In this document: in pieces, positions 2,812-64,000 of the stretch
Layout: the number at the start of each line of letters is the position of its first letter
Numbering within the stretch: the stretch's first letter is position 1
Assembly (NCBI GenBank): GCA_031423495.1
Contig: JANPFP010000212.1
Coordinates: 9,466-73,465 of the forward strand
DNA from: Acidobacteriota bacterium
Lineage (GTDB): Bacteria > Acidobacteriota > Blastocatellia > RBC074
DNA: 64,000 nucleotides
Direction of reading: 5' to 3'
Translations under genes and position numbers: made by a program
Notes under the pieces: generated by a model
Database searches by the model: none
The model's input: the letters and a program-made list of their open reading frames with translations, nothing else
Told to the model about the DNA's origin: nothing

Positions 2812-3653
2812 TGAACGCAATCGAAGCCCGCGCCCAATTCAACGCCGAACTGCAACGTGACGAAGCGTCACTTGAACTCGACCGCGCGGCGTTGCTCATC
2901 GCGGCAGAAAGCTATCCGTCACTCGACGTTGAACACTATTTGCGACAACTCGACGAACTCGCCGCGCAAGCTCGCGCGAACGACACGCCGCACGCTTCGC
3001 CGGTCACGCGCCTCCTGCGGCTGAACGATTTGATGTATGGCGAATGGGGCTTTCACGGCAATACCGAAGATTATTACGACGCGCGCAACAGCTTCTTTAA
3101 CGAAGTGCTTGACCGCCTCACCGGCATACCGATTACGTTGTCAGTGGTTTATATGGAAGTCGCGCGCCGCCTCGGCCTTCCCCTCGTCGGCGTAGGCATG
3201 CCCGGTCATTTCATCGTCAAGTATCAACCCAAAGACGCTGAAGATGACGAGCTTTTTATTGATCCGTTTAACGAAGGCCGCTTGTTGTCAGAGGAAGATT
3301 GCTTTCGGATGGTGCTGCAAATGTATCAAGGCCGCGTCGTTTTTGAGCGGCGCTTGCTCGACGCTGTGACAAAGCGGCAAATTCTGGCGCGGATGCTGCA
3401 AAACCTGAAAGGCATTTACGCCCGCGCCCACGACCACGCCAAAACCCTGAGCGCCATCGAACGCGTGATGCTGATTCATCCCGCCGCTGAAGAGTTACGC
3501 GACCGTGGCTTGGTGCTGGCGGCGCTGCATCGCTATCCGCAAGCCATCGCCGACCTTGAAAGTTACCTGCGCACCAAACCTGAACCCGACGAAGCTCAAG
3601 CCATTCAAGCCAAACTGAAAGAACTCAAACAACGACAGGCGCAGTGGAATTAA
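2811..3653 (+). CDS. transglutaminase-like/TPR protein (YchA/SirB1-like family)
   Basis: N-terminal transglutaminase-like core followed by TPR-like C-terminus; start overlaps the previous stop (ATGA). Confidence 0.55.
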   Translation: MNAIEARAQFNAELQRDEASLELDRAALLIAAESYPSLDVEHYLRQLDELAAQARANDTPHASPVTRLLRLNDLMYGEWGFHGNTEDYYDARNSFFNEVLDRLTGIPITLSVVYMEVARRLGLPLVGVGMPGHFIVKYQPKDAEDDELFIDPFNEGRLLSEEDCFRMVLQMYQGRVVFERRLLDAVTKRQILARMLQNLKGIYARAHDHAKTLSAIERVMLIHPAAEELRDRGLVLAALHRYPQAIADLESYLRTKPEPDEAQAIQAKLKELKQRQAQWN

Positions 3654-3655
3654 GT

Positions 3656-4801: not shown

Positions 4802-4870
4802 AGGGCTGAATCATAGCTGAAAAGCCAAAGGCAAAGGAATCACGGCAGAGGAATAATCTTGCGGTTCAAC

Positions 4871-4913
4871 CAGAAAGCGCAAAAGCCACAAAAGCTAATT
4901 TTGCTTTTGTGGC
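4871..4913 (-). terminator. rho-independent terminator of the giant protease gene (bidirectional-looking)
   Basis: 11-bp stem gccacaaaagc/gcttttgtggc with 7-nt loop, T-runs on both sides. Confidence 0.6.
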
Positions 4914-4979
4914 TTCTGTGCTTTTTGGTGGCGAATACCCAATCAAGTCAACGCGAGTGTTCGATTTCTCAACCAGCGC

Positions 4980-7900
4980 TTACTTGATATTCACTTCGAC
5001 GGGATTCGCCCACTTGCCGTCAACTTTAAGCCAGAGCTTGACGAGACCGCTGCCCGCCAACGTACGCGGCAAGAGCAGGTTGGTTTGATCGAGTCCGGCG
5101 AGGCTGCCTTGCTTGTCGAGATACAACACGCTGACTTCAGTACCCACACCAGCGGTGGTTCCGCCGATGAAACATTGCACGTTGCGCAAGTCGCTGCGAT
5201 GGCGAAAGCCCGTGCCATAAAGCACTAAGTAAACCTGATCGGTCGTCGGCCCCAGATCAATCGGCGTCGCAACCATCTTGCTCGTCGTGCTGTCAAAACG
5301 GGCGATGTTCTCATACGTATTAACCCCGTTGCGCACGCGCAGCGCCGATCCGGCGACGACGCCTTGCCCTGAAGCGTTGGACGTGAACAACCCCGGATTG
5401 ACGCCGCTGATCATCAACGCACCGCTTTCCCAGCGTCCGGCGTTGTCGCTGATGATGACTTCGGCAAGGCCGGGCGCGAGTTCAGTTGGCAGCAAATAAT
5501 TCACCTGCGTTTTAGCCACGAAAAATAGCGGCGCGAGGAAGCTGGCTCCGGCGCTGTCATAAATCGTAACCGTCGTACCGCCCAGCGTGGTCGGCAACGG
5601 CAAGCTATTCGCCACCAAAGTGCCGGACGCGAGGTCAGAGCCAAACGCCGCCACAATGCCATCGCGCGTCGCTGACTGATCGCCGTTGTTGCCGTAATGC
5701 GCCGCCGAAACACTGACCGTCACGCGCACTACGCGGCAATCAAGCGCATTCGACGATCCGCCGCCGAGATTCGCCGTCGAAGCCGGATTGAACACAGTCA
5801 CTTTTGCCGTACCCAAATTGGCTACGACTAAATCAGTTGCCGGAATCGTCACGCGCAATTCCATGTCGCTGACAAAAGTCGTCGCACGCTCTGCGCCGTT
5901 CCAACGCACCACGGAATTCGAAAGGAAGTTGCGTCCGTAAACCGTCAGAGTGCGCGCCGCGCCCAGCGCCAGTGCGTCAGGATAAGTCCGCACCGCAGTC
6001 GGCAACGGATTAGCGGTTGCGCTGCCCGCTTGCGTCACGTTCACGGTTTGCCCGGCAATCACCACTTTGAAATTACGTGCGGCTGATGCGGCGTTGGGCT
6101 GCGTCATCAGGGCTACGGTTCCGTTGCCGGTGCCATAAATGCCCGCCGTAATTTGTGCCGCTACGTCGCTGGCCGCCGAAGACCATGAACAACTGTTGGT
6201 CGCCATCACTGAAACATTCGTGCTGCCGCCACCCGCAGGCACGGTCAACGTCCCCGGACTTACGCTGAAGCTGCACGTCGGCGCAGCCGCTTGCGTGATC
6301 GAAAAGGCTTGCCCCAACACCTGAATCGTACCCGTGCGCGCTTGCGTCGTGGTGTTCGTCGCCAGCGAATAACTCACTGCGCCGCGCCTGACGCCGCTCG
6401 CCGTTGCCGCATCGAGCATGATCCACGTCGCGCTGGTGGTCGCAGCCCAACGGCAATCGTGGCCCGTACTCACCGTCACGTTATAAACGCCGCCCGCGTA
6501 ACTGGCGCTATGCGCGACAGGCGTGAAATAGGCCGTGCAACTCACGGGTGCAGCCGCTTGATTCACCGTATAAAGTTTGTCACCGATCATGATCGAACCG
6601 GTGCGCGCGCCGCCGCTGTTCGCCGCGATATTAAAGTTGACTGCGCTGCTCGTCTTGCCGGTAATCACCAGCCAGTCGACGTTGCTGGTCGCGTTGAATA
6701 CGCAACCCAACGGATTGGTCGTCGCGCTCGCCGAGCCTGAGCCTGCCACGGCAGCAACACTGACGACACTCGTCGGCAAGGTCACGCCGCAATTCGCATC
6801 TTGCGACACGATGAAAGTGCGCCCCGCTACGGTCAGCGTCGCTTGCCGCTGATTCCCTGTCGTATTCGGACTCAACGCAAAGCCGACCGTACCGTTGCCG
6901 ACGCCGCTCGCCGCCGTAGTAATCGCCAACCAGCTTTGCCCTGCGGCTTGATTGACCGAAGCTGTCCAGCCACAACCGGCAGTCGTCGTCACCGCCACCG
7001 TACCCAACGAAGCCTGTGAACTGAAGGTCTGCCCGCTGATCGTCGCGTTGTAAGCACAACCACTCGCCTGGGTCAGTGTGAACGTCAATCCGTTGACGGT
7101 AATCGTCGCACTGCGCGCGACGCCCGCGTTGGCCGCGACCGCAAAAACCATTGTGCCGCTGCCGCTGCCCGATGCGCCGCTCGTGATTGTCAACCATGCC
7201 GCGTTGCTCACGGCTGTCCATGTGCAACCCGTACCCGCCGTCACACTGATGCTGCCGGTGCCACTGGTCGCCACCGTTGAAGCACTGGTAACGTTGATCG
7301 TTACCGAACAGTCTCCGGCTTGCGAGACCGTGAAAGACTTGCCGCCGACCGAAATTGCGGCACTGCGCGCTACGCCTGTATTCGCCGCGACGGAATAATT
7401 CACCGTGCCGTTGCCTGTGCCTGTGGCATTCGTGAACGTCAACCAACTCGCATTGCTCACCGCCGTCCAGCCACAACCATTGCCTGCCGTCACGGCAAAG
7501 CTACCCGTACTCGCCGCCGCCGCAACACTCGCGCTGGTCACGCCCAACGTGACGTTACAGCCACCTGCCTGAATCACCGTGAAGGACTGACCGCTTACCG
7601 TAATCGTCGCGGTACGCGCCGCGCCCGTATTCGCCGCGACAGAAAAATTCACCGCGCCATTGCCACTGCCCGACGCACCGCTCGTAATCGTCAACCACGT
7701 TTGATTGCTCACCGCCGACCACGTACAACCAGTTCCTGCCGTCACATTGAAGCTGCCCGTATTGGCAGCCGCCGCGAAGCTTACGCTGCTCGTGTTCAAC
7801 GTGATCGCACAGCCCGCCGCTTGCGTTACTGTGAACGTCTGCCCACCTACGCTAATCACTGCACTGCGGCTCACGCCGGTGTTCGACGTTGCAGAATAAT

Positions 7901-10900
7901 TCACTGCGCCGTTGCCGCTGCCCGACGCACCATTCGTGATCGTCAACCACGACTGATTGCTCGTCGCCGTCCACGTGCAACCGCTTCCCGCTGTTACGTT
8001 GAAGCTGCCCGTACTGCTCGTTGCCGCTACGTTCGCACTGTTCGCGCTCAACGTGATCGTGCAACCACCCACTTGCGTCACCGTGTAAGACTGACCGCCC
8101 ACGCTAATCACTGCGCTGCGGCTCGCGCCCGTGTTCGCCGCGAATGAATAACTCACCGTAGCGTTGCCGCTGCCCGACGCACCATTCGTAACCGTCAGCC
8201 ACGTTTGATTGCTCGTCGCCGTCCACGTGCAACCGCTTCCCGCTGTTACGTTAAAGCTGCCTGTGCCGTTGGTCGCGGCGACGTTCGCGCTCGACGCATT
8301 CAACGTGATGGTGCAACCACCTGCTTGCGTCAACGTGAACGATTGCCCGCCCACGCTAATCACCGCGCTGCGGCTCGCTCCCGTGTTCGCCGCGAATGAA
8401 TAACTCACCGTACCATTGCCGTTGCCCGAAGCACCGTTCGTAATCGTCAGCCAAGATTGATTGCTGGTCGCCGTCCACGTGCAACCATTGCCCGCTGTTA
8501 CATTGAAACTGCCCGTGCCACTCGTTGCGGCTACGTTGGCGTTCGTCGCGCTCAACGTGATCGTGCAGCCACCGGATTGTGTTACGGTGAAAGTTTGCCC
8601 CGCCACCGTAACCGTACTCGTACGCGCTGCGCCTGTGTTCGCAGCTACGCTCAAACTCACCGTGCCGTTGCCATTGCCCGACGCGCCGCTGCTGATCGTG
8701 ATCCAACTGGCATTGCTGGTGGCCGTCCATGCGCAACCCGGATTCGCCGTCACATTGACGCTCGCGGTTTGAATGCCTGCGCCTACGCTGGCGCTAGTGG
8801 CAGACAAACTGTAACTGCAAGCGACCGGCGTGAAGCTCGGCGTTTGCGTGTTGTTGCAACCTGATTTGATAAGCATCAGCGGCCCCGCCACGACACCCGC
8901 CGGAACCGTCACATTGATTTGCGTATCGCTCACCACCGTGAACGACGCGCTGACGTTGTTGCTAAAGAGTACGCTGTTGACGCCCGTGAAATTGCTGCCG
9001 GTGAGATTGACGGTCGCGCCTGCCACCGCGCTGGTGGGCGCGAGGTTCACGCCCGCCGGACAACTTGCCGAGCCTGATTCGAGCAAAAACGAAGCGTCGC
9101 TCATGTCGAAAAAGATATTGCCGACGGCTTCGACCTTGATGCGCGTCTCACCCGAAGAGAGTCCGGCAGGAACCGTGATCGTTTCGCTGCCGTCATTTGG
9201 CGTCGCGCCGAGAATCGTCACCGGAAAGGTTTCGCCGTTATCAATCGAGAGCGAAATTTTCACGTTCGCGCAACTGACCGGCGCGTTGTTGGTGTTGTTG
9301 ACGCTCCACGTCACGGTTTGTTGCGTACCGCCCACCCAGCGCACGCGCGTATCGGGGGCCGTTACCTGAAACGGGCCGGAAGCACCGTCCACGCTTAACA
9401 ACACGTCGTCATCGGCAACGCCGCCGCGCTGGTCGCGTACGATGACTTTGAAATTGAGATTGCGCGAAACGCGCGGCAAATGCTGCGCGACATACAAACC
9501 GTCGGCGTCCTGCAAAGGCGGTTCGTTGTTGTAATCCTGAATCAAAAACAGTTCGGGAAAGAGGTGCTGCGGGCTAAGCGTAGGCGAAAACGGTCGAAAG
9601 ATCGGGCGCGTCGTCGAAGCCGGGTCGCCCTCATCCGTGAAAGCCGGATTGCCGAAACTCGTGCCGCCCGCGTCATATTGTTCCCACGAATAAGTCAGAT
9701 TGGCGTAATCGCCGTTGTCGGAATCGTTCGCCGCTGCCGTCAAAGCGAAAGGCGTGAGTTTGGGAATGCGACGGTCTACGCCCGCATTCACCGTCGGCGG
9801 CGTATTGCCGCTGGGCGTCGCCGTCGAGCAGGTCGCTTCGTTTTGCATGAACTCAGCGATGGCATTCACCGCGCCGCTGTGAAAGTGCAACGCCCGCCCG
9901 AACGCAATGGCATTGCACGAACCGGAATAAGCCATGATCGTGAAGCCGCTGCCTGACTCATAGGCGGTGGTGGCGTTACGCTGCCCCGCGCAATTGCCCG
10001 TGTTGTCGTTGAAGGTGTGATGCGTGTTGAACTGATGGCCGAGTTCATGTGCAATGCGCCCGATATAAAACGGATGCCCTACGCCCACCGAGGTCGGAAT
10101 CAAACTGACGCCGCCACCTTTGTATTCATCTATCACGCAAGCGACGCCGATATAAGCCACGCCGCTCGCGCCCGTGCCCAACACATGGCCTACGTCATAG
10201 TTGGCCGCGCCGATGACGTTGTTAAAGTGCAAACGCGCTTCTTCCAACATCGTGCCGGCGCTGCCGTTGGTGAACGGGTCGCTCGTCGTGTCGTAAATCA
10301 ACTGATCGTTATTAGCCACGAGATTGAAATGCGCCGACAGATCGCGTTCATAAATCAGGTTGACCGCATTCAACCACGTGTTGACCGAAGCAATCGCGCC
10401 CGGCTTATTGCCGCCGCCGAACGCGAGCATATATTCATAGGTCGTCGCCAACGCCAGCCGATAGTTGCGGCGCGTCGCTCCCAAATTAATCACGCTCAAA
10501 TCGCGCGCAGCGGTGTTCTCACGCTGCGGCAAGCCCGGCACTTCTTCGGTCAGGCAATCATATTTGCCCGCCGCGACCGCGTCTTTGCTCTCATAGCTGA
10601 TGTATTGCCCATCGTTCGCTGAACCCACTGGCTCGACGCTATAGGCCGTGTCAGGCGTAGCGATCAACGCATATAACCCGCGCGGCGACCAGGTGAAACG
10701 CGCAATCAGCGCGGGATCATCCAACCCCACGGCGCGATAACTTTTGATTTCAGGAAAGCGTGCGGCTAAGGCGGCTTCCATATTCGGCGAGTCTTCGATG
10801 GCGAAACGCGCGAAGCTGCCATCGGGCAAAGGCAAGGTCACTGTCGGACGCACGCCTTTCGTGTTTTCGAGCGGAGCTTGCGCGAGTTGTCGTTGCCACG

Positions 10901-51153: not shown

Positions 51154-51163
51154 AGTCTGCTGT

Positions 51164-51257
51164 ATGGCAACCTGTCAGGTTGCCATGTCTTGAAAGTTCT
51201 TACCTTTATTCAAACGGCTCGCACTGCCAAAGCCATGGCAACCTGTCAGGTTGCCAT
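51164..51257. repeat. pair of 23-bp palindromes ATGGCAACCTGTCAGGTTGCCAT (51164-51186, 51235-51257) between thiG start and the upstream gene
   Basis: Perfect dyads; same core as the 1019-1098 pair. Confidence 0.7.
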
Positions 51258-51268
51258 ACAAATTGAGA

Positions 51269-52442: not shown

Positions 52443-52550
52443 CGTGTCCGTAGCCCGACCGTAAGCGAGGGCTACCTCCGCAATGCGCCTGTTGGTATCA
52501 AGATACGCACTGCCGAGGTAGCCCTCGCTTACGGTCGGGCTACGGACACG
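52443..52550. repeat. ~108-bp hairpin repeat element, copy B (36-bp perfect stem, 36-nt loop)
   Basis: cgtgtccgtagcccgaccgtaagcgagggctacctc / gaggtagccctcgcttacggtcgggctacggacacg; differs from copy A at two stem positions, both compensated. Confidence 0.75.
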
Positions 52551-55937: not shown

Positions 55938-56249
55938 TCACAACTTCATATACTGGTTCCACGCCCCGCGAACGGCGGCTTCGTCCTGTGGGCTAAGCTG
56001 CCCAAGCCGTCGGGTGAGCAGCGTCTTTTCTGCCGTCACCAATCGGTCAAGCCGCGCGACTGAGGGCTTTGCCAGTCCGGCCTGCGCCCAATCTTGCAAC
56101 GCAACGTCCCGCGCTCCGGTTCGTAAAACCGAGGTCACGCGACAAATCACGGCATCTTGCTGCAAATCGAAAAGTACCAGCACCGGACGCGCTTTGCTCA
56201 CCGCGCCCGAAGTGAAAGGAAATTGGCAAAGGAAGATTTGGCCGAACAT
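55938..56249 (-). CDS. type II toxin, MazF/PemK family
   Basis: GQIFLCQFPFTSGAVSKARPVLVL…VICRVTS pattern; 3-nt gap to the upstream antitoxin ORF. Confidence 0.7.
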   Translation of the reverse strand: MFGQIFLCQFPFTSGAVSKARPVLVLFDLQQDAVICRVTSVLRTGARDVALQDWAQAGLAKPSVARLDRLVTAEKTLLTRRLGQLSPQDEAAVRGAWNQYMKL

Positions 56250-56252
56250 GTT

Positions 56253-56462
56253 TCAATAATTGTCATAGATGGCGTCTTCAGCCGAATCATCGCGCATAAA
56301 CTGCTCATAACCAGCCAGTCGCCATTCAGCGTCGTCCGCATTGCCGTCGGTTAAAACGATGACACGCACCTGACCTGTTTTGGGAAGCTGCGCGACGACT
56401 TCCTGAGGAATCGCCAGCACCGGTTCAGGGGTCAGAGTCGTGATGAATTCGATTGCTTGCAT
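56253..56462 (-). CDS. putative antitoxin partnered with MazF-like toxin
   Basis: 69-aa ORF immediately upstream of and coupled with the toxin gene. Confidence 0.5.
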   Translation of the reverse strand: MQAIEFITTLTPEPVLAIPQEVVAQLPKTGQVRVIVLTDGNADDAEWRLAGYEQFMRDDSAEDAIYDNY

Positions 56463-56567: not shown

Positions 56568-57881
56568 TTAGATGAAATCGTTAAACAGCGATTCCAGATA
56601 TTCCTGCCGTCCACTGCGGATGGTTTTCACTTCGCCCAGTTTGAGCGCAATTTGTTCTAACTCAGCAAAGCTGCTCTTGCCTTTGGCGACTTTCTTGCCG
56701 AGTTCGCTGTCCCACGAACTGTAACGCTCTTTGACGAAGTCGGCGATGCGTCCGTCCTGACGAATCCGCGCCGCGATTTTCAGGCCGCGCGCGAAGGTGT
56801 CCATCCCTGCGATGTGGGCGAGGAATAAATCTTCCGGCTCGAAGCTCTCGCGGCGCACTTTGGCGTCGAAGTTCAGGCCGCCCGTCGTGAAGCCGCCCAT
56901 CTTCAATACGCAAAGCATCACATGCGAAGTGATATACAAGTCAGTCGGAAACTGGTCAGTGTCCCAACCCAATTGCCAGTCGCCCATGTTCGCGTCAACC
57001 GAACCGAGCGCGTTGGCCGCAATCGCCGTTTCGAGATCGTGTTGAATCGTATGCCCAGCGATTTGCGCGTGATTGGTTTCAAGGTTGAGCTTGAAATCTT
57101 TCATCAATCCGTATTGCCGCAGGAAGTTCAAACAGGTCGCGGCATCGGTGTCGTATTGATGCTTGGTCGGTTCTTTCGGCTTCGGTTCGATATAGAAAGG
57201 CCCTTTCAGCCCGATCTCTTTTTTGTAATCAACCGCCATGTGCATAAACGCGCCGAGGTGGTCGAGTTCGCGTTTCATATCGGTGTTGAGCAGCGTGAAA
57301 TAGCCTTCGCGCCCGCCCCAAAACACATAGCCTTCGCCGCCAAGTTCGAGCGTTGCTTCCATCGCTTTTTTGACCTGCGCCGCGCCGTAAGTGAAGGCAT
57401 TCAAGTCAGGCGACGTAGCCGCGCCGTGCATAAAGCACGGATGCTGAAACAAACACGCTGTGCCCCACAACACTTTTTTGCCGCTGTTCTTTTGCGCTTT
57501 GGCGAGTTCTTTGACTACGCGGTCTAGGTTCTTGTTCGACTCTTTGAGCGTCTTGCCTTCGGGGGCTACGTCGCGGTCGTGAAAGCAGTAATAGTCAATC
57601 TGCAACTTTTCGAGCAGTTCAAAAAAGACGGGAATGCGGCGCAGCGCGTTTTCCATGCTCTCGCTAAAATCATCCCACGGACGCACCGCTGTCGGCATCC
57701 CGAAAATCTCAGCGCCGCGCCCGCGCATCGTGTGCCAATAACTCGAAGCAAAGCGCAAATGCTCGCGCATCGTCTTGCCTTCGACGAGTTCATCGGGGTT
57801 GTAATGTTTGAATGCGTAAAGATTGCGCGTGTCAGGTCCTTCAAACTTGACCGTTTTGATTTTCGGAAATGCGTCAGCCAT
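56568..57881 (-). CDS. xylA: xylose isomerase
   Basis: …[40 protein letters not shown]… class II XylA signature; start set at ATG 57881 (MADAFPKI). Confidence 0.85.
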
Positions 57882-58173
57882 TGCAGGTATCTTCCTTTGG
57901 TTTTGATTTAATGGTGAATCACGACAGATGCGCCGTGTTGAGGGCGGGACAATAACACAAACTTTGGATGGCAACTATTGGATGAAACGGGTCACGAGTA
58001 ATGGGCTATCAGCCGATGGCTGGCTCACCGCAGAGCCACGCGGAGTCCTCGCAGAGGCTGCGCAGAGGAGAAGCGGAAGAGAGTTTTTTTGGCGGTGGAC
58101 GCATCCTCTGCGGAAACTCTGCGAAAAACTCTGCGGTGAGGCGAACTTGATCTTTCAGCCCATCGGTTTCCCC

Positions 58174-59616
58174 TTAACGGCTCAACGCATCAGCCAATAC
58201 CAACCCCGCTTCGCAATGCCCCATTCCGCTGGTATAGCTGCTCATCTTTTTGGCTTCGCTAATGCCGAAGCGCGCGTGCAAATCGCTGCCGCGTAAATAG
58301 TCAGGCAACGTCTGCCGCGTAGACATCGCAAAGCCCAATGATTCGCCGCGCAACAAATTACCGTGCGTAGCCTGCATCGTCGCAAACGTAGTCATAAACG
58401 GACTGCCCAACAGCCAACCGTCTTGAAAACTTATGACGACATCGGCGCGGTTTTTCACATGCGTATCGAAGGCATCAAACGCGCGCCGTACCGGGTCAAG
58501 GTAATCGTGCGCCAGCGTCGCCCGAAACCACGTCGCGCGGTCAGCGAAGCCCGCCGCATCGAGTTGCCCGCTGTCGCGCATCGTTTCGATGATCGCATTC
58601 AGCCGCAGCGGATCACCGCCGAGGTCTTCATATTTGAATCGTTCGCCTGCGTGCGTGAGGCGCGCGCGTCCGCGTGGGCTGACCAGAGCGAGTGAATTGT
58701 CACCCTGGTAGTAAAGCGCGAAATCTACGCCATCGGCTTTGAGGCAGGCGGCGGCGACTGATTCTTTCTCGCCCGCAAAGGCGAATAGTTGCGCCGAACC
58801 GACCAAGCCGTATCGCGGCAACACTACGTCGCCGTTTTGCTTGAGGCTTTTGACGGCGTTGAAGCCGGCCTGCGTGAGCGCATCGTTCAAGCGCACGTGC
58901 CGATAGTCGTCATAACGATTCCCGTGATCTGAAAGCAATTCGACTTCGAGCTTGGTGCCGTTGCGTTCGGCTTCGGCGGCGAGGTCTTCGATGGCGCGGT
59001 CAAGCTGACGCAACGCGACTTTGAGCATGCCTTCGCCGCCCAGATGCGCCAGTGAATCGGTCGCTCCCACGTAGCCCAAAAAGACCTGCGCATCCGATTC
59101 GCGGAAAGAATTTTTCAGTGATGCCAAATCGAGTTGCGCGGTGATGAGCGTCGAGAACGGCGCAGCGACATAAGCCATTCCGCCCAACGCCGCCGCCGCG
59201 TGATAATCAAAGCCCTGACGATAAGTGCGCGCAATGAACTTCCCGCCATTAAACCGGTCGGCGATGTTGCCGAACAAACGGTTTTGCGCGCGGTCGTAAT
59301 AATGGTCTTCATAACCCGGCGAGTTTTCGGTGTGCAGAATTTCTACCAGCGAAGGATTGGTCGAACTCGGAAACGTCGCCACCATTCGCGCCGGTGCGGT
59401 GAAGCGCTTGAAACGCCCTTCGGCGCGCAGCTTTTCGATGGTGTCAAATGGTACGCCGTCGAGAATGAGGATGAGGCGACGAGTAGCAGCAGATTGTTTG
59501 GCTGTGGCGGCAGATTGTTTGGCTGTGGCTTGGAGCTTCGCGTAAAGCGGCAAGATTGAGCAACAAACTAAAGCGTAAGTCATCAAAAAAATGGGCGCGC
59601 GGAACAGTCGTTTCAT
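58174..59616 (-). CDS. alkaline-phosphatase superfamily protein (NPP/type I phosphodiesterase-like), secreted
   Basis: Signal peptide; metal-ligand motifs DGVPFD…, GATDSLAHLGG, LLSDHGN; N-terminal TAKQSAA x2 repeat. Confidence 0.6.
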   Translation of the reverse strand: MKRLFRAPIFLMTYALVCCSILPLYAKLQATAKQSAATAKQSAATRRLILILDGVPFDTIEKLRAEGRFKRFTAPARMVATFPSSTNPSLVEILHTENSPGYEDHYYDRAQNRLFGNIADRFNGGKFIARTYRQGFDYHAAAALGGMAYVAAPFSTLITAQLDLASLKNSFRESDAQVFLGYVGATDSLAHLGGEGMLKVALRQLDRAIEDLAAEAERNGTKLEVELLSDHGNRYDDYRHVRLNDALTQAGFNAVKSLKQNGDVVLPRYGLVGSAQLFAFAGEKESVAAACLKADGVDFALYYQGDNSLALVSPRGRARLTHAGERFKYEDLGGDPLRLNAIIETMRDSGQLDAAGFADRATWFRATLAHDYLDPVRRAFDAFDTHVKNRADVVISFQDGWLLGSPFMTTFATMQATHGNLLRGESLGFAMSTRQTLPDYLRGSDLHARFGISEAKKMSSYTSGMGHCEAGLVLADALSR

Positions 59617-59638: not shown

Positions 59639-60088
59639 CTATCTAGCGCATTTCAGGTTTCCAACGAACATAAGCCCAAAGCACTCAGCAATGGCTCCCG
59701 TCCTTTTTACCCATTCTGGAGTAATGTCCCTTTTAATACTTTCGACATCCTCATACCTAACCTCATAGGTTGGCGCGAATCCAGAGAATACTGAGTAGTG
59801 ATTAAAAGTGAAAACTTCATCCTGTAAACTCAAAATTAGACCTCCTAGTTTTTTATATTCAGAAGTCATAAACCCTCCCCTATCCGTCAAAAACCTATAT
59901 TCGCGCCCTGACTTCAGCCTAAGCGTTACCATTACCTCTGCAGTCTGAAGTGCCTTCATTCGCTCTTTTATTTTACTGACTGCTTGTTCCGGCGAGTTAG
60001 CTGAAGCTTGACCTTGCGCTAAAACTGTCGTCGCGTGCATCAGACAAGACAGAGCTATCAGTAGATGGACTATTGTTATCTTTATCAT
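59639..60088 (-). CDS. secreted hypothetical protein (low-GC gene)
   Basis: Start set at ATG 60088 (MIKITIVHLLIALSCLMHATTVLAQG signal peptide); markedly AT-richer than flanks. Confidence 0.55.
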   Translation of the reverse strand: MIKITIVHLLIALSCLMHATTVLAQGQASANSPEQAVSKIKERMKALQTAEVMVTLRLKSGREYRFLTDRGGFMTSEYKKLGGLILSLQDEVFTFNHYSVFSGFAPTYEVRYEDVESIKRDITPEWVKRTGAIAECFGLMFVGNLKCAR

Positions 60089-60107
60089 TTTTACCTCAAA
60101 TATCGGC

Positions 60108-60935
60108 TTAATCAGCCAGCGGATGCACACAAAGAATTCGGTATTCGCCGTCAACCTTGGCAAACATCAGGTGAAACATTTCAAAAATTGGGACACACAC
60201 GACGCGGGTGCCTGCGGGCAAGCCGAGAAATGGTTCGTCATGGATTTCGACAACAGGTTTGTCGGTGCCAGTAAGTGTGAGCTTGGCTAAGAGCTTGTGC
60301 GCGACTTGGGTCAGCTTGAACGAGTTGTCGCCGCGTTCGTGTTTGATTGCCTCCAACGTTCGCTCAAGTAACGCCGTCACACGACGCAAGTCTTCGATGT
60401 TAGCAATGGTGGCGGAATCAGCGCCATCATTCACTAAGTTGCCAAGCACAGGGTCTTGCGCCAACTCGCCGCGCACGCTGGCAGGAATCAGGCGCTCTAT
60501 CATCTTGTCTATTTGATCGGCATCGGGTTCTTTCCCCTGCAACAGCGGCCCCGCCGTTTGATTGATTGCAATCGTGGCAAAAGAGAAAAACACGCCGTGC
60601 GCAGCCACATAAAAGCTGCGCCAGTCTTCAGTCGAAGCCGTGGTAAGCAAATCGGATTGATAGTGCATCCCCGGCAAAAACATAATGCTTGCAGTTGGAG
60701 CCTCTTCGCGTAACGCCGATTTTTCCTGCGCGATAAACCGTTCGATAAAATCAGGCGCGTAAAGTTCACTCACAACGCGGCGCATCTTTCCGTCGGCTTC
60801 CCACTGCTCAAGAAACTTGGCGGACAAATTGGCAGCGGCACGTTGCTCTTCGGCAGTTATCGTTTCCTGTGCCAGTGAAGGAAAGCTTTGAAATGTAAGT
60901 ACGAGCAAAAAGAAAAACTTGATAGCTAGTCGCAC
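60108..60935 (-). CDS. secreted hypothetical protein
   Basis: GTG start 60935 preceded by AAGGAGG at 5-nt spacing; VRLAIKFFFLLVLTFQSFPSLAQE signal peptide; ORF track version (to 61082) runs through the micro-ORF. Confidence 0.6.
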   Translation of the reverse strand: MRLAIKFFFLLVLTFQSFPSLAQETITAEEQRAAANLSAKFLEQWEADGKMRRVVSELYAPDFIERFIAQEKSALREEAPTASIMFLPGMHYQSDLLTTASTEDWRSFYVAAHGVFFSFATIAINQTAGPLLQGKEPDADQIDKMIERLIPASVRGELAQDPVLGNLVNDGADSATIANIEDLRRVTALLERTLEAIKHERGDNSFKLTQVAHKLLAKLTLTGTDKPVVEIHDEPFLGLPAGTRVVCVPIFEMFHLMFAKVDGEYRILCVHPLAD

Positions 60936-61063
60936 ATTTCCTCCTTTGTGCGTTGGCGTTGCAACGCGGCTGAAGCAAACCACTGACTGGCAATCAATCC
61001 CAGCGGCAGCGCGAGAATGATCAGCAGCATGAATAAACAAACCATCGTCAAAACATTGTTCAT
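60926..61063 (-). CDS. 45-aa hydrophobic micro-protein (MNNVLTMVCLFMLLIILALPLGLIASQWFASAALQRQRTKEEMCD)
   Basis: ATG 61063 after GAGGGG; single predicted TM; stop overlaps the GTG start/RBS of the downstream gene (coupling). Confidence 0.45.
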   Translation of the reverse strand: MNNVLTMVCLFMLLIILALPLGLIASQWFASAALQRQRTKEEMCD

Positions 61064-61087
61064 CACAAAACCCCTCAATCATTGCGG

Positions 61088-61192
61088 CTAGTTGACGATC
61101 TCATTCAATACGCCGTGTACCGCCCAGGCGATAACGCCGACAGCGCAGAGAAACATGGCCGCGCACAGTGCCAATACAACAATGACCATCAT
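61088..61192 (-). CDS. 34-aa hydrophobic micro-protein (MMVIVVLALCAAMFLCAVGVIAWAVHGVLNEIVN)
   Basis: GGAGA RBS 4 nt before ATG 61192; single predicted TM; lies 10 nt after the upstream gene stop. Confidence 0.45.
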   Translation of the reverse strand: MMVIVVLALCAAMFLCAVGVIAWAVHGVLNEIVN

Positions 61193-61201
61193 CGTTTCTC
61201 C

Positions 61202-61618
61202 TTAATCAGCAAGCGCGTAGGCCAAAATGAAAAGCGTCAGCAGAGTCGCGCCGACGCCAATGCCAATGCCAATCGCAATGGCGGCTCCGGTTGAAAGGTT
61301 CTTGCCCTGCGCTTGCATAACGTTCGGATAAGGCACTTCAGTCGCAGCGCCTGTCTTGGCGTCGGTGATCGTGAACGAATCAGCGCCCGCCTGACTGACG
61401 TAACCCGACAGTTTGGTTTTGTCGCGCAGTTTGATTTTGATATTGGCCTCAGGGCCGGTGCCGAGCTTGCTGATAGAGACTTTGATTTTTGCTACGCGCG
61501 CGGCCTCTTTTGCTTCAGGCGTAACAGTCGCCGCAAAGGCAGGTACGGCCAACAGCGCGTAAAGCAACGCGCCGATCAAAGTGAGTGATAGAGATTTTTG
61601 CGTATGGGATTTGAACAT
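61202..61618 (-). CDS. secreted/membrane-anchored hypothetical protein (signal peptide + C-terminal glycine-zipper TM)
   Basis: Start set at ATG 61618 with GGAGGTG RBS; MFKSHTQKSLSLTLIGALLYALLAVPAFA signal; C-terminal …GAAIAIGIGIGVGATLLTLFILAYALAD. Confidence 0.6.
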   Translation of the reverse strand: MFKSHTQKSLSLTLIGALLYALLAVPAFAATVTPEAKEAARVAKIKVSISKLGTGPEANIKIKLRDKTKLSGYVSQAGADSFTITDAKTGAATEVPYPNVMQAQGKNLSTGAAIAIGIGIGVGATLLTLFILAYALAD

Positions 61619-61728
61619 TTTGACCACCTCCGCCCCGTTCAAAAAATTCTTGCGCCGTGCCAGTTCGCCGCTTGGCGTTGCACACGGCGCAAGGTTCTTA
61701 AATATCCTCAACGGTTGCGTGATGGCTT

Positions 61729-61746
61729 AAAGCAAGGGCGATGCCA
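61729..61746 (-). promoter_or_regulatory. sigma54 (-24/-12) promoter TGGCAT-N5-TTGCT driving the secreted-protein operon
   Basis: Minus strand reads cTGGCATcgcccTTGCTtta, exact match to the TGGCAC-N5-TTGCW spacing; ~110 nt upstream of the 61618 start; adjacent sigma54-dependent activator gene. Confidence 0.6.
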
Positions 61747-61804
61747 GAGGCGAGTTAACAGGTTCTGGAAATTCTGGAAGCTCCAACGGAGCGCGGGAAT
61801 ATAG

Positions 61805-61937
61805 CCCAGGGTGAAGCCCTGGGTTAGGTGGCGATAAATAACAAAAGCCCTGAAAGGGCGTGATAAATCGTTGGCTATCACGCCCTTTCAGGGCTTTTTG
61901 AAATTTCGGTTGCGTAACCCAGGGCTGACACCCTGGG
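61805..61937. promoter_or_regulatory. two dyad elements CCCAGGG-N5/6-CCCTGGG (61805-61823, 61918-61937) flanking the terminator; candidate enhancer (UAS) sites for the NtrC-family activator
   Basis: cccagggtgaagccctggg and cccagggctgacaccctggg read directly; located 60-190 bp upstream of the sigma54 promoter. Confidence 0.35.
61843..61900. terminator. strong bidirectional rho-independent terminator (19-bp stem) after the response-regulator gene
   Basis: gccctgaaagggcgtgata…tatcacgccctttcagggc flanked by aaaa/ttttt. Confidence 0.7.
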
Positions 61938-62037
61938 CTATTTTATTTTGCCCCGTTGGGGCACTCAGAAGTTCTCGTTTGACGTTTGATTGCCAACTAA
62001 AAACTATCGCGCAGCGTTTGCCTGTCAGCCGAAGCTG

Positions 62038-63507
62038 TCACTCGTCATCGGAATCTGGCGCTTCGTCGCCAAAGACGTAGCGGCGTGTGAGTCCCAAATC
62101 TTTGAGTTTTTGTTGGAGGCTTTGGCGATGCATGCCTACGCGCTCAGCGGCGCGGGTGACGTTGCCGCCGGTTTCCTGCAGGCAGCGTTCGATATATGCG
62201 CGTTCGAATTCGCGGCGGGCTTCGCGGAAGTCGGCGAGAAACGGAATCTGTAGCGCGTTATCATCGGCAGGTTGGGACGGTTCGATTTTGGTTGGTGATG
62301 CGAGTGAAGCAACCGCCACTTGCGGCTTGGCGGATTCCTGCGTGAGTTCGGCAGGCAGGTCGCTCACCTGCAGACTCTCGCCATCGGTCAGCACGACGCT
62401 GCGTTCGAGCGCGTTGCGCAATTCGCGTACGTTGCCGGGCCAGTCATAAGCGATGAGGCGTTGCATGGCTGCGGCGCTGATCTCGGTGCATTTGAGTTGA
62501 TAGCGCGCGGCGTAACTCTGCAAAAAATGTGTCGCCAGCAACGGGATGTCTTCGCGACGCTCGCGCAGGGGCGGCAGCTCGAGTTCGACTACGCGCAAAC
62601 GGTAAAAGAGGTCGGCGCGAAACGTGCCCGCGTCAACGGCCTGTTGCAAGTCGCGGTTGGTGGCGCTGACGACGCGCACGTCAACTGATACGGTTTGCGA
62701 ACTGCCGAGGCGTTCGATCTTGCGTTCTTCAAGTACGCGCAAGAGCTTGGCTTGCGTGTTCAAACTCATATCGCCGATTTCGTCGAGAAAGATCGTGCCG
62801 CCGTGCGCGAGTTCGAACTTGCCTTTGCGTTGCGCGGCGGCTCCGGTGAAGGCACCTTTTTCGTGGCCGAACAGTTCCGATTCGATCAACTCGGAAGGCA
62901 GCGCGGCGCAATTCATCGCAATGAATTCGCCTTTGCGGCGCGCCTGGCTCTGTTCGTGAATGGCGCGCGCTACGAGTTCCTTGCCCGTACCCGATTCGCC
63001 GCGAATCAGCACCGTGACATCGGTCGCGGCTACCTTGTTAATCAAATCGTAAATGCGCCGCATCGGTTCACTGGTGCCGAGCAAATCGCCCACGCCCCGC
63101 GCGGCTTTGAGCGCAGCGCGCAGTTGCTCGTTCTCGCGTTTGAGCGAACGCGTTTCGAGCGCGTTTTTGACGACGAGGCGGAGTTCGTCCACTTCAAAAG
63201 GCTTGGCGAGATAATCGTAAGCGCCCGCCTTGATGGCTTCGACGGCCGTGCGTTCGTTGCCGTGCGCGGTAAGCATTACGACAGGTGGCGCATCGGGTTG
63301 CGTTTGCAGTTCGCGCAAATAATCGAGCCCGCTCACACCGGGCAGATTGATGTCGAGCAAGAGCAAATCAGGTTTGTCGGCGGCGATGAGTTGGCGAGCT
63401 TCCGGCACAGAACCGGCTTCACGGATAGCGTAATTTTTCAGCGCGCGTTGCATGCCGTAACGCGCAGCTTCTTCGTCGTCAATAATGAGAATTTTGGCTT
63501 CAGACAT
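62038..63507 (-). CDS. sigma54-dependent Fis-family response regulator (NtrC-like)
   Basis: Receiver domain (ILIIDDEEAARYG…DLLLLDINLPGVSGLD), AAA+ sigma54-interaction domain (GESGTGKELVARAIH, GAFTGA), C-terminal Fis-type HTH. Confidence 0.9.
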   Translation of the reverse strand: MSEAKILIIDDEEAARYGMQRALKNYAIREAGSVPEARQLIAADKPDLLLLDINLPGVSGLDYLRELQTQPDAPPVVMLTAHGNERTAVEAIKAGAYDYLAKPFEVDELRLVVKNALETRSLKRENEQLRAALKAARGVGDLLGTSEPMRRIYDLINKVAATDVTVLIRGESGTGKELVARAIHEQSQARRKGEFIAMNCAALPSELIESELFGHEKGAFTGAAAQRKGKFELAHGGTIFLDEIGDMSLNTQAKLLRVLEERKIERLGSSQTVSVDVRVVSATNRDLQQAVDAGTFRADLFYRLRVVELELPPLRERREDIPLLATHFLQSYAARYQLKCTEISAAAMQRLIAYDWPGNVRELRNALERSVVLTDGESLQVSDLPAELTQESAKPQVAVASLASPTKIEPSQPADDNALQIPFLADFREARREFERAYIERCLQETGGNVTRAAERVGMHRQSLQQKLKDLGLTRRYVFGDEAPDSDDE

Positions 63508-63540
63508 TTCGTAGCTCGCAGTTAAAAGATTGTTCCCGTT

Positions 63541-64000
63541 TCACTTTAGCACATCCAAAATCGGCAGCGTCACGGCAAACCTTGTACCGCATTCCCCACT
63601 GAGCGGACTCACGCATTGAATCGCACCTCCTAACTCGCGCACGCGCCGCGCGACGATTGCCAAACCCAATCCCGTACCGCGCTGCGTGGTCGTAAAAAAC
63701 GGTTCAAAGATTTTGCTTTGCTGTTCCGCCGGAATGCCTTCACCTTCGTCACTGACGGTGAATTGCCAGCGCGCGTCATCAAGGCTTTCGGAAAGTTTGG
63801 CGCTCGCAATCGTTACCGTGCCAGCTTGTCGCATTGCTTGCACGCCGTTGAGCGTGAGGTTGAGCAGAACTTCTTTGAGCGCCGCCACCGTAGCGCCGTC
63901 GAGTTGCGGATCGATTGACAAGTCGAGTGTGAGTTGCACTTCGCGTTCGGCGGCCTGGTTGCGCGCGAGCGTGACAACGGTCTCAGCCAGTTCAGAAAAC
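63541..64000 (-). CDS. sensor histidine kinase, C-terminal part (gene continues beyond window end)
   Basis: HATPase_c motifs (…NLTLNGVQAM…, DEGEGIP, GTGLGLAIV); frame remains open upstream of 63939 to the window edge. Confidence 0.8.
   Translation of the reverse strand, partial: FSELAETVVTLARNQAAEREVQLTLDLSIDPQLDGATVAALKEVLLNLTLNGVQAMRQAGTVTIASAKLSESLDDARWQFTVSDEGEGIPAEQQSKIFEPFFTTTQRGTGLGLAIVARRVRELGGAIQCVSPLSGECGTRFAVTLPILDVLK

Follow-up and report, generated by a model that had tools for sequence, protein, structure and literature searches.

A conserved two-component, predicted sigma-54-dependent module of Blastocatellia with a previously undescribed leader RNA

The stretch of 64 kb of Acidobacteriota DNA analysed here (the window) carries what is probably a conserved two-component, sigma-54-dependent regulatory module of Blastocatellia, in which a kinase and activator would act on a sigma-54 promoter, followed by a leader RNA and envelope cargo, with a nearby palindrome being a repeat and the enhancer more likely a tandem 13-mer. 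Its conserved core comprises, in this order, the kinase, the activator, the sigma-54 promoter, the leader RNA and an AP-superfamily phosphodiesterase, p480 (58174-59616); what differs by lineage is the set of small secreted or membrane proteins encoded between the leader and the phosphodiesterase. The relatives compared are without exception metagenome-assembled genomes or metagenome contigs. Eight orthologous genome loci were found independently, via the 138-aa protein p138, and 24 metagenome loci were picked by a search pattern containing both the sigma-54 promoter and the 5' box of the leader. Loci L003, L005, L007, L008, L011, L015 and L042 share synteny of the kinase, the activator, p138 and p480. 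Wherever a flank of the 24 metagenome loci gave a match, it was to the activator on the upstream side and to p480 on the downstream side.

The regulatory genes are the following.

63541-64000, minus strand: C-terminal part of a sensor histidine kinase (Pfam HATPase_c, 1.2e-22), the gene extending past the window end
62038-63507, minus strand: NtrC-family response-regulator activator of sigma-54, 489 aa, assigned from its Pfam domains

Both regulators had been named in the original prediction, and their domains are confirmed by Pfam. Full-length orthologues of the kinase have about 697 aa, with at least six hydrophobic segments in the first ~310 residues in a hydropathy scan, and the L003 orthologue contains a weak GAF-like region, HisKA and HATPase_c. 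The activator contains Response_reg, Sigma54_activat (7.7e-74), AAA_lid_14 and HTH_8, and its translation reveals Asp52 in the receiver domain, the motifs GESGTGKE and GAFTGA in the AAA+ domain, and an HTH of the Fis type. Judging from this domain content, the polytopic-membrane histidine kinase would phosphorylate the NtrC-type activator. The proposed likeness to zraSR and atoSC holds at the level of regulatory logic only, as the activator scores under every curated equivalog cut-off of NCBIfam.

The promoter that this activator would serve lies downstream of its gene.

61731-61746, minus strand: sigma-54 promoter TGGCATCGCCCTTGCT, the sole exact match in the window and conserved, with the -24 GG at 61744-61745 and the -12 GC at 61732-61733

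This site had been predicted with its end at 61729, which is corrected here to 61731. A scan for further sites gave no second exact match to TGGCAY-N5-TTGCW in the 64-kb window, and with 0.25 matches expected by chance and one or more present in 22 of 100 shuffles, the lone match is weak evidence by itself. At the equivalent position, TGGCA[CT]-N5-TTGC[AG] is present in 8/8 orthologous loci against a background of 0.028 sites per kb per strand, and these promoters score 10-11 and lie 111-134 nt 5' of the first gene, the exception being L003, where an additional micro-ORF is present and the distance is 264 nt. The site is also present in the 24 metagenome loci, but the pattern used for their selection included it. 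The promoter heading the co-directional operon thus looks like a genuine sigma-54 promoter, at which (TGGCAT-N5-TTGCT) the activator would remodel sigma-54 RNA polymerase, with transcription predicted from promoter conservation to start at about 61720. It is exceedingly improbable that the promoter match and the hairpin reflect chance and that the operon is served by read-through from the regulator genes or by an unrecognised sigma-70-type promoter. The weak significance of a single consensus match would allow this, but conservation of the promoter, of the leader and of the fixed distance between promoter and box extends across loci whose activators are just 65-92% identical, strong hairpins stand between the regulator genes and the promoter, and a sigma-70-like site was not found on the minus strand of this interval.

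Just downstream of the promoter and before the first gene, a leader RNA is found in 33 loci.

61641-61720, minus strand: leader RNA of ~80 nt, from alignment, RNAalifold and a covariance model
61708-61718, minus strand: invariant 5' box GCAACCGTTGA, covering about +3 to +13 of the predicted transcript, with no other exact match in the window
61641-61693, minus strand: intrinsic terminator of the leader, with stem arms at 61682-61693 and 61649-61660 and the U-run at 61641-61646

The leader is previously undescribed: no Rfam family contains it, and an Rfam search gave no match at E <= 1. From its 5' end, it has an unpaired stretch holding the invariant box GCAACCGUUGA, then an A-rich tract and a GC-rich hairpin, and a U-run last. 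The box is followed directly by a conserved GG(A), and its distance from the -12 element is fixed at 13 nt. In the 24 metagenome loci the box is invariant by design, as the search pattern contained it, and therefore independent evidence for it comes from only nine genome loci, found without using the box, in which it is invariant. Indel lengths not divisible by three show that the 5' region is not coding. When the covariance model was run over 1.02 Mb, matches were confined to nine syntenic sources, with one copy in the window (61642-61720). In the alignment of 29 sequences, the basal nine pairs of the terminator are 98.5% paired, as compared to 33-45% in slid controls, and the stem has 13 double-change cells versus 2.6 in shuffles, a value reached in 0/500 of them, with three pairs showing compensatory changes. 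No antiterminator structure is supported; the box could pair with the 5' arm of the terminator over 5 bp in all sequences, covariation being absent. The fold has an MFE of -31.6 kcal/mol (z = -4.0), and the terminator thus looks strong, which counts against the proposed read-through. The original prediction did not include this leader or its intrinsic terminator ahead of the first gene.

In the proposed sequence of events, the transcript would open with this leader, having the unpaired box GCAACCGUUGAGG first and then the A-tract/GC-stem/U-tract terminator, whose structure is shown by covariation. In the window, the first gene begins only 22 nt past the U-run and hence the downstream genes would have to be transcribed by read-through of the terminator, so that attenuation of transcription is the most likely role of the leader, which would thereby set a second point of control. 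A small RNA may also arise by release of the terminated transcripts, and the leader could be an attenuator, act as a Pxr-like small RNA, or combine the two functions. That it is mainly a stand-alone, sigma-54-dependent, trans-acting small RNA of the Pxr kind, with the box as seed and downstream read-through incidental or minor, is less likely. Such a role would fit its architecture of a minimal small RNA, with ~28 unpaired, highly conserved 5' nt followed by a canonical terminator, and its association with the activator gene, in contrast to the next gene, which varies (p138, a 164-aa type protein, micro-ORFs or p480). Precedents exist as well: the gene of the sigma-54 response regulator nla19 is followed after 262 nt by pxr (108 nt), which lies behind a sigma-54 promoter (PMC5568312), and Qrr1 is a further regulatory RNA that depends on sigma-54 and is activated by a pair of enhancer-binding proteins (PMC10162802). 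However, the leader has no similarity to the Rfam models of Pxr, Qrr or GlmY, and GAGGA in its box resembles an SD and not an anti-SD sequence. Furthermore, in every locus co-directional genes begin 13-50 nt past the U-run, which leaves no space for a promoter of their own, and p138-family genes elsewhere have a sigma-54-like site directly 5' in 20 of 85 cases versus 1.1 expected, suggesting that the genes themselves need sigma-54 transcription.

Upstream of the promoter lies a palindromic region.

61768-61974, no strand assigned: composite nested palindromic repeat of ~205 nt, comprising inverted repeats I4 and I5
61847-61894, no strand assigned: central hairpin with a 20-bp stem and GCCCTGAAAGGGCG arms, from a terminator scan, flanked by T-runs on both strands
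61918-61963, plus strand: Acido-Lenti-1 copy (Rfam RF01687), made of dyad 2 (61918-61937) and the small hairpin GCCCCGTTGGGGC
61779-61823, minus strand: inverted Acido-Lenti-1-like copy (Rfam RF01687), made of dyad 1 (61805-61823) and the small hairpin GCTCCGTTGGAGC

The two CCCAGGG/CCCTGGG dyads, located exactly as predicted, had been taken for the upstream activating sequences of the activator, with the hairpin between them as a strong terminator of the regulator operon. Each dyad is the first stem of one of two inverted Acido-Lenti-1 motif copies; against a gathering score of 37, the plus-strand copy reaches 44.8 bits (E 7e-8) and the minus-strand copy stays below it at 31.2 bits (E 3.6e-4). 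The composite reads as small hairpin, dyad hairpin, central 20-bp hairpin, dyad hairpin and small hairpin, forming an imperfect palindrome whose mirror-image arms (~61768-61865 and ~61876-61974) hold both dyads and the hairpin. A hairpin with a T-run is present where the terminator was claimed, as the centre of this repeat. The same architecture recurs in related genomes at L003:5230-5420, L003:6440-6630, L015, L004, L033:30-230 and L038:4525-4760, of which L033, L038 and the second L003 copy, inside the operon, represent unrelated loci. Within a few hundred nt of these three there is no sigma-54 site scoring >=10, and L038 has two weaker score-9 matches nearby. At orthologous promoters the position of the composite is occupied by other palindrome families or by none, including in the closest relative, L009, and most orthologues, where the promoter, the leader and the DNA-binding region of the activator are kept; the distance between the element and the promoter also differs by ~20 nt between the window and L003. 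Thus, an enhancer function of the dyads is quite improbable, even though no other dyads occur in the window, with 0 expected, their centres, ~70 and ~180 nt from the -24 element on its upstream side, fall within the usual enhancer range, and the composite is kept at this position in L003, L004 and L015. As a conserved enhancer the dyads were rejected, being parts of a composite that is a member of a multi-copy family and not specific to this promoter. The composite probably terminates or insulates the kinase-activator transcript, and may have been secondarily recruited, for example for DNA bending.

A more likely enhancer, from sequence comparison, is found at the end of the activator gene.

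62024-62056, minus strand: candidate enhancer, a tandem 13-mer RGATTCNGMTGAC in two copies at 20-nt spacing

The copies, AGATTCCGATGAC at 62044-62056 and AGCTTCGGCTGAC at 62024-62036, straddle the stop codon of the activator. Among 25 orthologues, the first 17 non-coding nt past this stop carry 1.02 bits per position and the next 28 nt carry 0.20, and the 13-mer repeat match is 7.64/13 at offset 20 versus 1.7-5.1 at other offsets. Half of the tandem overlaps conserved codons. Direct repeats are unusual among NtrC-type sites.

The genes of the operon are as follows.

61202-61618, minus strand: p138, an ORF of 138 aa with signal peptide, helix, Sm/SH3-like five-stranded small beta-barrel and Gly-rich C-terminal membrane helix
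61088-61192, minus strand: hydrophobic micro-protein, 34 aa, conserved in L003 (58%) and L035 (64%)
60926-61063, minus strand: hydrophobic micro-protein, 45 aa, homologue of a 54-aa ORF in L003 and L035 (tblastn 51%)
60108-60935, minus strand: p275, secreted, 275 aa, GTG start, NTF2-like beta-sheet domain with a helical insert
59639-60088, minus strand: putative low-GC ORF, ~149 aa, ORFan with a signal-peptide-like N-terminus
58174-59616, minus strand: p480, 480 aa, NPP-type phosphodiesterase or pyrophosphatase of the AP superfamily (Pfam PF01663) with a hydrophobic N-terminus

The suspected run-on of the operon into an AP-superfamily gene is borne out, since p480 is the conserved downstream gene across loci: all loci with a sufficiently long contig have it, and in L089, L121, L125 and L127 it comes straight after the leader. 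It matches Pfam Phosphodiest with 36.7 bits (cut-off 23), and its catalytic residues D53, T86, D187, H191, D230, H231 and H418 are invariant in ten orthologues. Thus, p480 appears to be the conserved target gene of the module, and would be an exported or membrane-anchored enzyme.

The remaining co-directional genes are present as predicted, with one codon less in p275 (formerly 276 aa) and ~149 instead of 150 aa in the low-GC ORF. Profile searches of the five small products gave no Pfam match and none above an NCBIfam cut-off. Their description as novel cargo has to be limited: at least 708 proteins make up the family of p138, which is large in Blastocatellia and Pyrinomonadaceae, and p275, which has an NTF2-like fold, is in a family of 121 cluster representatives. 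Placed before p480, the predicted envelope cargo of the window (tail-anchored p138 with its Sm/SH3-like barrel, the two hydrophobic micro-proteins, the secreted NTF2-like p275 and the low-GC ORFan) represents lineage-variable passengers. The low-GC ORF (GC 0.40-0.45, flanks ~0.57), to which gene callers gave just 76 aa, had no homologue in a search and is missing in L003, where the phosphodiesterase directly follows the p275 homologue; it is presumably a window-specific insertion. Between L003 and L035, homologues of the 45-aa micro-protein have substitutions at the three codon positions of 7/1/15, with 14 synonymous and 6 non-synonymous changes, and the 34-aa micro-protein is annotated as a gene in public assemblies.

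The regulatory part of the module comprises the following features:

63541-64000, minus strand: C-terminus of a histidine kinase with a HATPase_c domain (Pfam), whose gene runs off the window
62038-63507, minus strand: activator of 489 aa with receiver, sigma-54-interaction, AAA-lid and Fis-type HTH domains
62044-62056 and 62024-62036: candidate enhancer made of two tandem copies of RGATTCNGMTGAC (spacing 20 nt) across the activator stop codon
61731-61746, minus strand: sigma-54 promoter TGGCATCGCCCTTGCT, with GG and GC at the canonical spacing within TGGCAC-N5-TTGCW
61641-61693, minus strand: intrinsic terminator with a 12-bp GC-rich stem and then a U-run (U6), between the promoter and the first ORF

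The activator contains the receiver, the AAA+ sigma-54 interaction domain and the Fis-type HTH of an NtrC-family response-regulator bEBP, with PF00072, PF00158, PF25601 and PF02954 each above its cut-off (Pfam) and with Asp52, GESGTGKE and GAFTGA legible in its translation. In NCBIfam it falls under every named equivalog cut-off, scoring 489.5 vs 714 for AtoC and 465.6 vs 558.6 for NtrC, and still further below those of ZraR (383 vs 760), GlrR (375 vs 763) and LuxO (392 vs 800), and on these profile scores it is judged to be a member of no named equivalog. In a full-length orthologue of the kinase, the N-terminal ~310 residues contain at least six hydrophobic segments, and a weak GAF-like region comes after them; these segments suggest that the sensor is membrane-embedded. 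Kinase and activator genes are adjacent in the window, unlike in the close relatives L003 and L004 (L numbers denote loci from related genomes, with L087 to L129 being metagenome loci), where one or two Uma2-family genes, putatively restriction-endonuclease-like, are inserted between them (L003:2808-3677; L004:3082-4539).

This Sigma54_activat- and GAFTGA-containing activator adjoins a sigma-54 promoter that heads a co-directional operon, as the original prediction had proposed, and that is conserved in 8/8 syntenic genome loci with scores of 10-11. Within the window, 61731-61746 is the sole exact match to TGGCAY-N5-TTGCW, which by itself is weakly significant, as 0.25 matches are expected by chance and at least one occurs in 22/100 shuffles. 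Promoter equivalents of the form TGGCA[CT]-N5-TTGC[AG] are found in all eight loci, 111-134 nt upstream of the 138-aa ORF p138 (61202-61618, minus strand), against a background of 0.028 such sites per kb per strand; the distance extends to 264 nt in L003 because of an extra 43-aa micro-ORF there. The comparison draws on 80 loci obtained by scanning 185,579 species genomes with the p138 alignment, and the L004 orthologue yields no promoter information, as its contig stops within the repeat that lies upstream of the promoter. With the -24 GG at 61744-61745 and the -12 GC at 61732-61733, transcription is predicted to start at ~61720. Judged from sequence conservation, the promoter is taken to be real and conserved.

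Conservation extends to the flanking genes. The order kinase, activator, p138 and p480 (the phosphodiesterase gene, 58174-59616, minus strand) is kept in L003, L005, L007, L008, L011, L015 and L042 and in part in L009, with activators 71-92% identical across these genome loci. In the metagenome loci, the activator gene (65-81% identical) is located upstream wherever the upstream flank gave a match and p480 downstream wherever the downstream flank gave a match, and p480 directly follows the leader RNA in L089, L121, L125 and L127. Since these flanks are conserved and the genes between them vary, the core of the module can be defined as the kinase, the activator, the sigma-54 promoter, the leader and the AP-superfamily enzyme. 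This 480-aa enzyme belongs to the Pfam Phosphodiest family, passing the PF01663 gathering cut-off over residues 48-263 (36.7 bits vs 23), has a conserved hydrophobic N-terminus and is taken to be exported. Across 10 orthologues no change is seen in D53, T86 (TFPSxTN), D187, H191, D230, H231 (SDHG) or H418, and we take these residues to be the metal-ligand Asp/His set and the Thr nucleophile of NPP enzymes; sequence and profile searches detected no PDB relative. L102 has two p480 matches past the leader, the one at 3537-3776 being a short fragment of the N-terminus and the one at 4164-5333 a full copy, which suggests a duplication or a pseudogene.

The original prediction overlooked the leader RNA itself (61641-61720, minus strand), which is conserved. 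An invariant GCAACCGTTGA box is common to the orthologues downstream of the promoter, exactly 13 nt past TTGC and hence at about +3 to +13 of the transcript; 3' of it, the sequence is first A-rich and then forms a GC-rich hairpin (CTTGCRCCG...CGGYGCAAG), to which a T-run is attached. Scanning of metagenomes with the pattern GGCA-N6-TTGC-N13-GCAACCGTTGA returned 48 stretches, 24 of which contain the complete promoter-box-hairpin-U-run arrangement; the invariance of the box in this set is by construction, and the independent evidence for it comes from the nine genome loci. The terminator is present in all 29 sequences of the leader alignment (A4), for which RNAalifold gives the hairpin as paired and the initial ~28 nt as single-stranded. 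Its nine basal pairs are 98.5% paired, as compared to 33-45% in slid controls, with compensatory changes in three of them and 13 double-change cells vs 2.6 +/- 1.5 in shuffles, a value that 0/500 shuffles reach. The window leader folds with -31.6 kcal/mol (z = -4.0). A covariance model built from A4 recovers the element at the nine syntenic sources only in 1.02 Mb of related DNA and a single copy in the window, at 61642-61720, and no Rfam match was obtained at E <= 1 over 61620-61730.

Coding explanations for the leader were considered in two forms, a TTG-started frame fused to p138 (169 aa) and a UUG-initiated peptide over the terminator arm, and both were rejected. In A4 columns 17-22 the indels are not multiples of three and the frames vary between loci, which argues that the unpaired part is not coding. 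An antiterminator helix was also examined: the CGCAA of the box can form 5 bp with UUGCG of the terminator 5' arm in 97.9% of cells, and with four of these five pairs never varying and none covarying, this helix lacks covariation support. Translation-coupled antitermination from the SD-like GAGGA found 8-13 nt before a UUG is speculation.

Established for this locus are the domains of its proteins, the conservation of the promoter and of the terminator-ended leader, and the synteny; in its workings the module resembles other two-component sigma-54 switches of the NtrC type. In the proposed sequence of events, the phosphorylated activator would open the sigma-54 complex and transcription would proceed from ~61720, with most transcripts ending at the U-run (61641-61646) if nothing relieves termination, and read-through would then allow the expression of the envelope proteins and the phosphodiesterase. 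As the first ATG is located 22 nt downstream of the U-run, read-through is required, which favours an attenuator role. The terminated product of ~80 nt has the anatomy of a small RNA, and this, together with an arrangement that mirrors pxr downstream of nla19, makes a dual role of the leader plausible; the closeness of the downstream ORFs argues that its function is at least partly that of a leader. A more far-reaching proposal, which we advance only tentatively and regard as rather doubtful, is that the ~80-100-nt RNA represents a new class of sigma-54-dependent regulatory RNA, acting both as a conditional terminator gating the envelope and phosphodiesterase operon and, once released, as a trans-acting small RNA with the invariant 5' box GCAACCGUUGAGG as a seed or protein-binding site. 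It would then be the equivalent of Pxr/Qrr in Acidobacteriota, wired directly into a membrane-sensing two-component system.

Qrr1-LuxO and GlmY-GlrKR are examples of sigma-54-dependent small RNAs encoded beside their own two-component activator. As in these systems, an NtrC-type activator would here drive the synthesis of a short RNA ending in a terminator, using a -24/-12 promoter beside the activator gene; however, Qrr1 and GlmY are independent genes whose Hfq or RapZ partners and whose targets are known, whereas the RNA described here is the 5' leader of an operon, and the activator is below both the LuxO and the GlrR cut-offs of NCBIfam. Qrr1 is the subject of PMC10162802. In Myxococcales, the nla19 sigma-54 activator gene is followed by a 250-300-nt intergenic region with a sigma-54 promoter, the ~100-nt Pxr RNA and a co-directional gene (PMC5568312). 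The order of activator gene, sigma-54 promoter, structured RNA and co-directional gene is the same, but the phylum is different, no sequence or structure similarity to Pxr is apparent (no Rfam match), a single terminator hairpin takes the place of the three stem-loops of Pxr, and the downstream genes start within tens of nt and apparently depend on read-through. In its logic and in where it lies in the genome the leader resembles Pxr, Qrr and GlmY, but it shows no homology to these RNAs and differs in its position at the head of an operon. With terminator-based attenuators and riboswitch expression platforms it shares an intrinsic terminator between promoter and first ORF and a conserved upstream sequence that could form or nucleate an alternative state; alignment A4 contains no conserved aptamer-like structure, no covarying antiterminator and no conserved leader peptide, any reading frame being broken by indels. 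To our knowledge, attenuators on sigma-54 transcripts have rarely been described.

The analogy with zraSR-zraP and atoSC drawn in the original prediction applies to the sensor kinase and NtrC-type activator controlling adjacent genes for small envelope proteins, and does not extend to family membership, since kinase and activator are below the AtoC/AtoS and ZraR/ZraS cut-offs. Unlike in those systems, the cargo contains no ZraP or Ato families (Pfam, NCBIfam), and the genes are co-directional with a leader RNA and not divergent with a shared enhancer. What is new is the leader RNA, which is conserved and predicted to be sigma-54-dependent, and the constancy with which it is paired with an NPP-type enzyme that is uncharacterised. 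Kinase, activator, promoter, leader and enzyme make up a compact circuit present in dozens of soil and sediment genomes. Acidobacteriota are a dominant soil phylum in which regulation is almost unexplored, and the library searched yielded no paper on sigma54 and enhancer binding proteins in Acidobacteria. Should the leader turn out to work as an attenuator or as a small RNA, it would constitute an unusual terminator checkpoint on a sigma-54 transcript and a first regulatory-RNA handle in Blastocatellia.

Upstream of the promoter, the two CCCAGGG-N5/6-CCCTGGG dyads at 61805-61823 (dyad 1) and 61918-61937 (dyad 2), with a 20-bp-stem hairpin and T-run between them, are borne out by the sequence, and no others occur in the 64 kb, where none is expected. 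Their proposed role as the conserved enhancer of the activator did not hold. A repeat search revealed that the dyads mirror each other inside one long, imperfect palindrome, with arms at ~61768-61865 and ~61876-61974 and the 20-bp hairpin, the strong terminator of the original prediction, as its core, together a composite repeat of ~205 nt (61768-61974). The segment 61918-61963 (plus strand) matches Acido-Lenti-1 (RF01687) at 44.8 bits, passing the gathering score of 37, and its mirror copy at 61779-61823 (minus strand) reaches 31.2 bits, under that score; each dyad corresponds to stem 1 of this family and the small GCCCCGTTGGGGC / GCTCCGTTGGAGC hairpins to stem 2. The five-hairpin composite recurs in related genomes at L033:30-230 (where the copy within it scores 43.1 bits), L038:4525-4760 and L003:6440-6630, the last being a second copy inside the orthologous operon. 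No sigma-54 site with a score of 10 or more is located within a few hundred nt of any of these three, the L038 composite having two weaker score-9 matches in that range; the scan of related genomes places the same composite in unrelated contexts. At the orthologous promoter position it is found solely in the window, L003, L004 and L015, its place being taken by a GGGCAAACTGTCAGTTTGCCC palindrome pair in L005, L008 and L098 and by a CTGGGAGCGC...GCAGGCGGGACG pair in L102, L119 and L121, and no pair matching these palindrome families is present there in L007, L011 and L042; altogether, the dyads are replaced by other palindromes or by none in more than 20 orthologous loci. Recurrence at unrelated loci and turnover at the orthologous position therefore identify the dyads as dispersed-repeat sequence and not as a conserved enhancer, an outcome that the original prediction itself had named as grounds for refutation. 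Because some long hairpin is nearly always present, its likely role would be to terminate or insulate the kinase-activator transcript, a role that any strong palindrome could serve, which would explain the palindrome turnover.

Acido-Lenti-1 is listed as a probable RNA that is not cis-regulatory, from Acidobacteria and Lentisphaerae (Weinberg et al. 2010, PMC2864571). The match at 61918-61963 agrees with it in passing the gathering score, in two-hairpin architecture and in phylum, but differs in that two inverted copies, the second below the gathering score, flank a long central hairpin in a ~205-nt symmetric composite recurring as a unit. Such a symmetric arrangement fits a DNA-level repeat as well as an expressed non-coding RNA; by its sequence organization, the composite is closer in appearance to a DNA repeat of the REP/BIME or MITE kind than to an RNA gene standing by itself. 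The presence of Acido-Lenti-1 inside a larger symmetric repeat unit bears on whether this 'RNA family' is an RNA gene, and striking dyads near promoters in these genomes should be treated with caution, as they often are dispersed palindromic repeats. A loose association of Acido-Lenti-1 with group II introns has been reported, and agrees with a group II intron domain at L038:4225-4323 (RF00029, 54 bits), ~200 nt upstream of the L038:4525-4760 composite.

Other candidates for an enhancer were weighed in the same region. Between activator stop and promoter, an ~85-nt ACGGAA-array palindrome is present in L009 (the closest relative), L087, L101, L111, L112, L117, L122, L124, L125, L126 and L129, with ACGGAA units at ~10-11-nt phasing on one arm and TTCCGT on the opposite arm. 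This palindrome may serve as a terminator, represent a repeat element or be an enhancer with multiple sites. Its position is nearly fixed relative to the promoter (167-169 nt from stop to -24). Its arms keep their complementarity through changes in sequence, and many orthologues lack the palindrome, so that it behaves like one more hairpin or repeat element and was rejected as an enhancer. The GGGCAAACTGTCAGTTTGCCC pairs of L005, L008 and L098 behave in the same way and were likewise rejected. The best candidate is the tandem RGATTCNGMTGAC at the activator stop codon, which we offer as a lead and not as a finding: its non-coding copy retains 1.02 bits per position vs 0.20 further on, and its register gives 7.64/13 matches at offset 20 vs 1.7-5.1 at other offsets. 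Ten loci have 167-169 nt between activator stop and promoter; the window, into which the composite repeat has been inserted, has 291 nt.

Palindromes are also found elsewhere in the window. Pairs of GCAACCTGTCAGGTTGC palindromes 61-71 nt apart, resembling the GGGCAAACTGTCAGTTTGCCC pairs, occur at 1012-1105 and 51160-51260, and a ~110-nt hairpin with 51-52-nt arms (CGTGTCCGTAGCC...) occurs at 813-930 and 52443-52550. Downstream of p480, the stretch 58000-58170 is rich in CTCTGCG / CGCAGAG around a T7 run and may be another dispersed repeat or the operon end.

The genes between leader and p480 are variable and encode hydrophobic micro-proteins and p138-type or 164-aa-type proteins, both of these latter types combining a signal peptide with a small beta-barrel and a Gly-rich membrane helix. 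All predicted ORFs exist, with one-codon corrections to the "276-aa" product, which is 275 aa (p275, 60108-60935, minus strand, GTG start at 60935), and to the "150-aa" product, whose low GC content (0.40-0.45) was confirmed. As predicted, the five small products have no recognised family, none matching Pfam or passing an NCBIfam cut-off in profile searches. At least 708 homologues of p138 occur in Blastocatellia and Pyrinomonadaceae. Restricted to the immediate clade of the window are p275 and the micro-proteins of 34 aa and 45 aa; divergence of the micro-ORFs is biased to the third position, consistent with coding. A word-indexed homology search had left p275 as an orphan, a status rejected after an exhaustive HMMER search gave 121 cluster representatives; exact look-up of the corrected p275 sequence pointed to contigs from the same strain only. 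The low-GC ORF is absent from L003, is called only in part by gene finders and yielded no homologue in the homology search, and is a recent insertion or an ORFan. The first ORF past the leader is often very hydrophobic, with 40-120 aa and the N-terminus M-x-x-(F/I)-(A/L)-C-(F/M) (L088, L093, L097, L099, L101, L112, L118, L119, L122, L124, L126, L129 and L003:5554-5685), and these proteins form an unannotated micro-protein family tied to the module. Outside the synteny, p138-family members have no adjacent activator gene, and 20/85 carry sigma-54-like sites within 100 nt upstream vs ~1.1 expected (loci L005-L084), for example CGGCACCGCGATTGCA and TGGCATTGTAGTTGCT at ~30-35 nt upstream of the start; the whole p138 family may constitute a sigma-54 regulon class in Pyrinomonadaceae.

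In other parts of the window, 7056-8768 contains at least six tandem copies of a 252-nt unit (84 codons) with 63-75% identity, presumably a repeat-domain surface protein gene. At 55938-56462 (minus strand), the translations of two small adjoining ORFs (103 aa and 69 aa) suggest to the eye a toxin-antitoxin pair, and that of the neighbouring 468-aa ORF at 56568-57974 similarly looks like a xylose isomerase.
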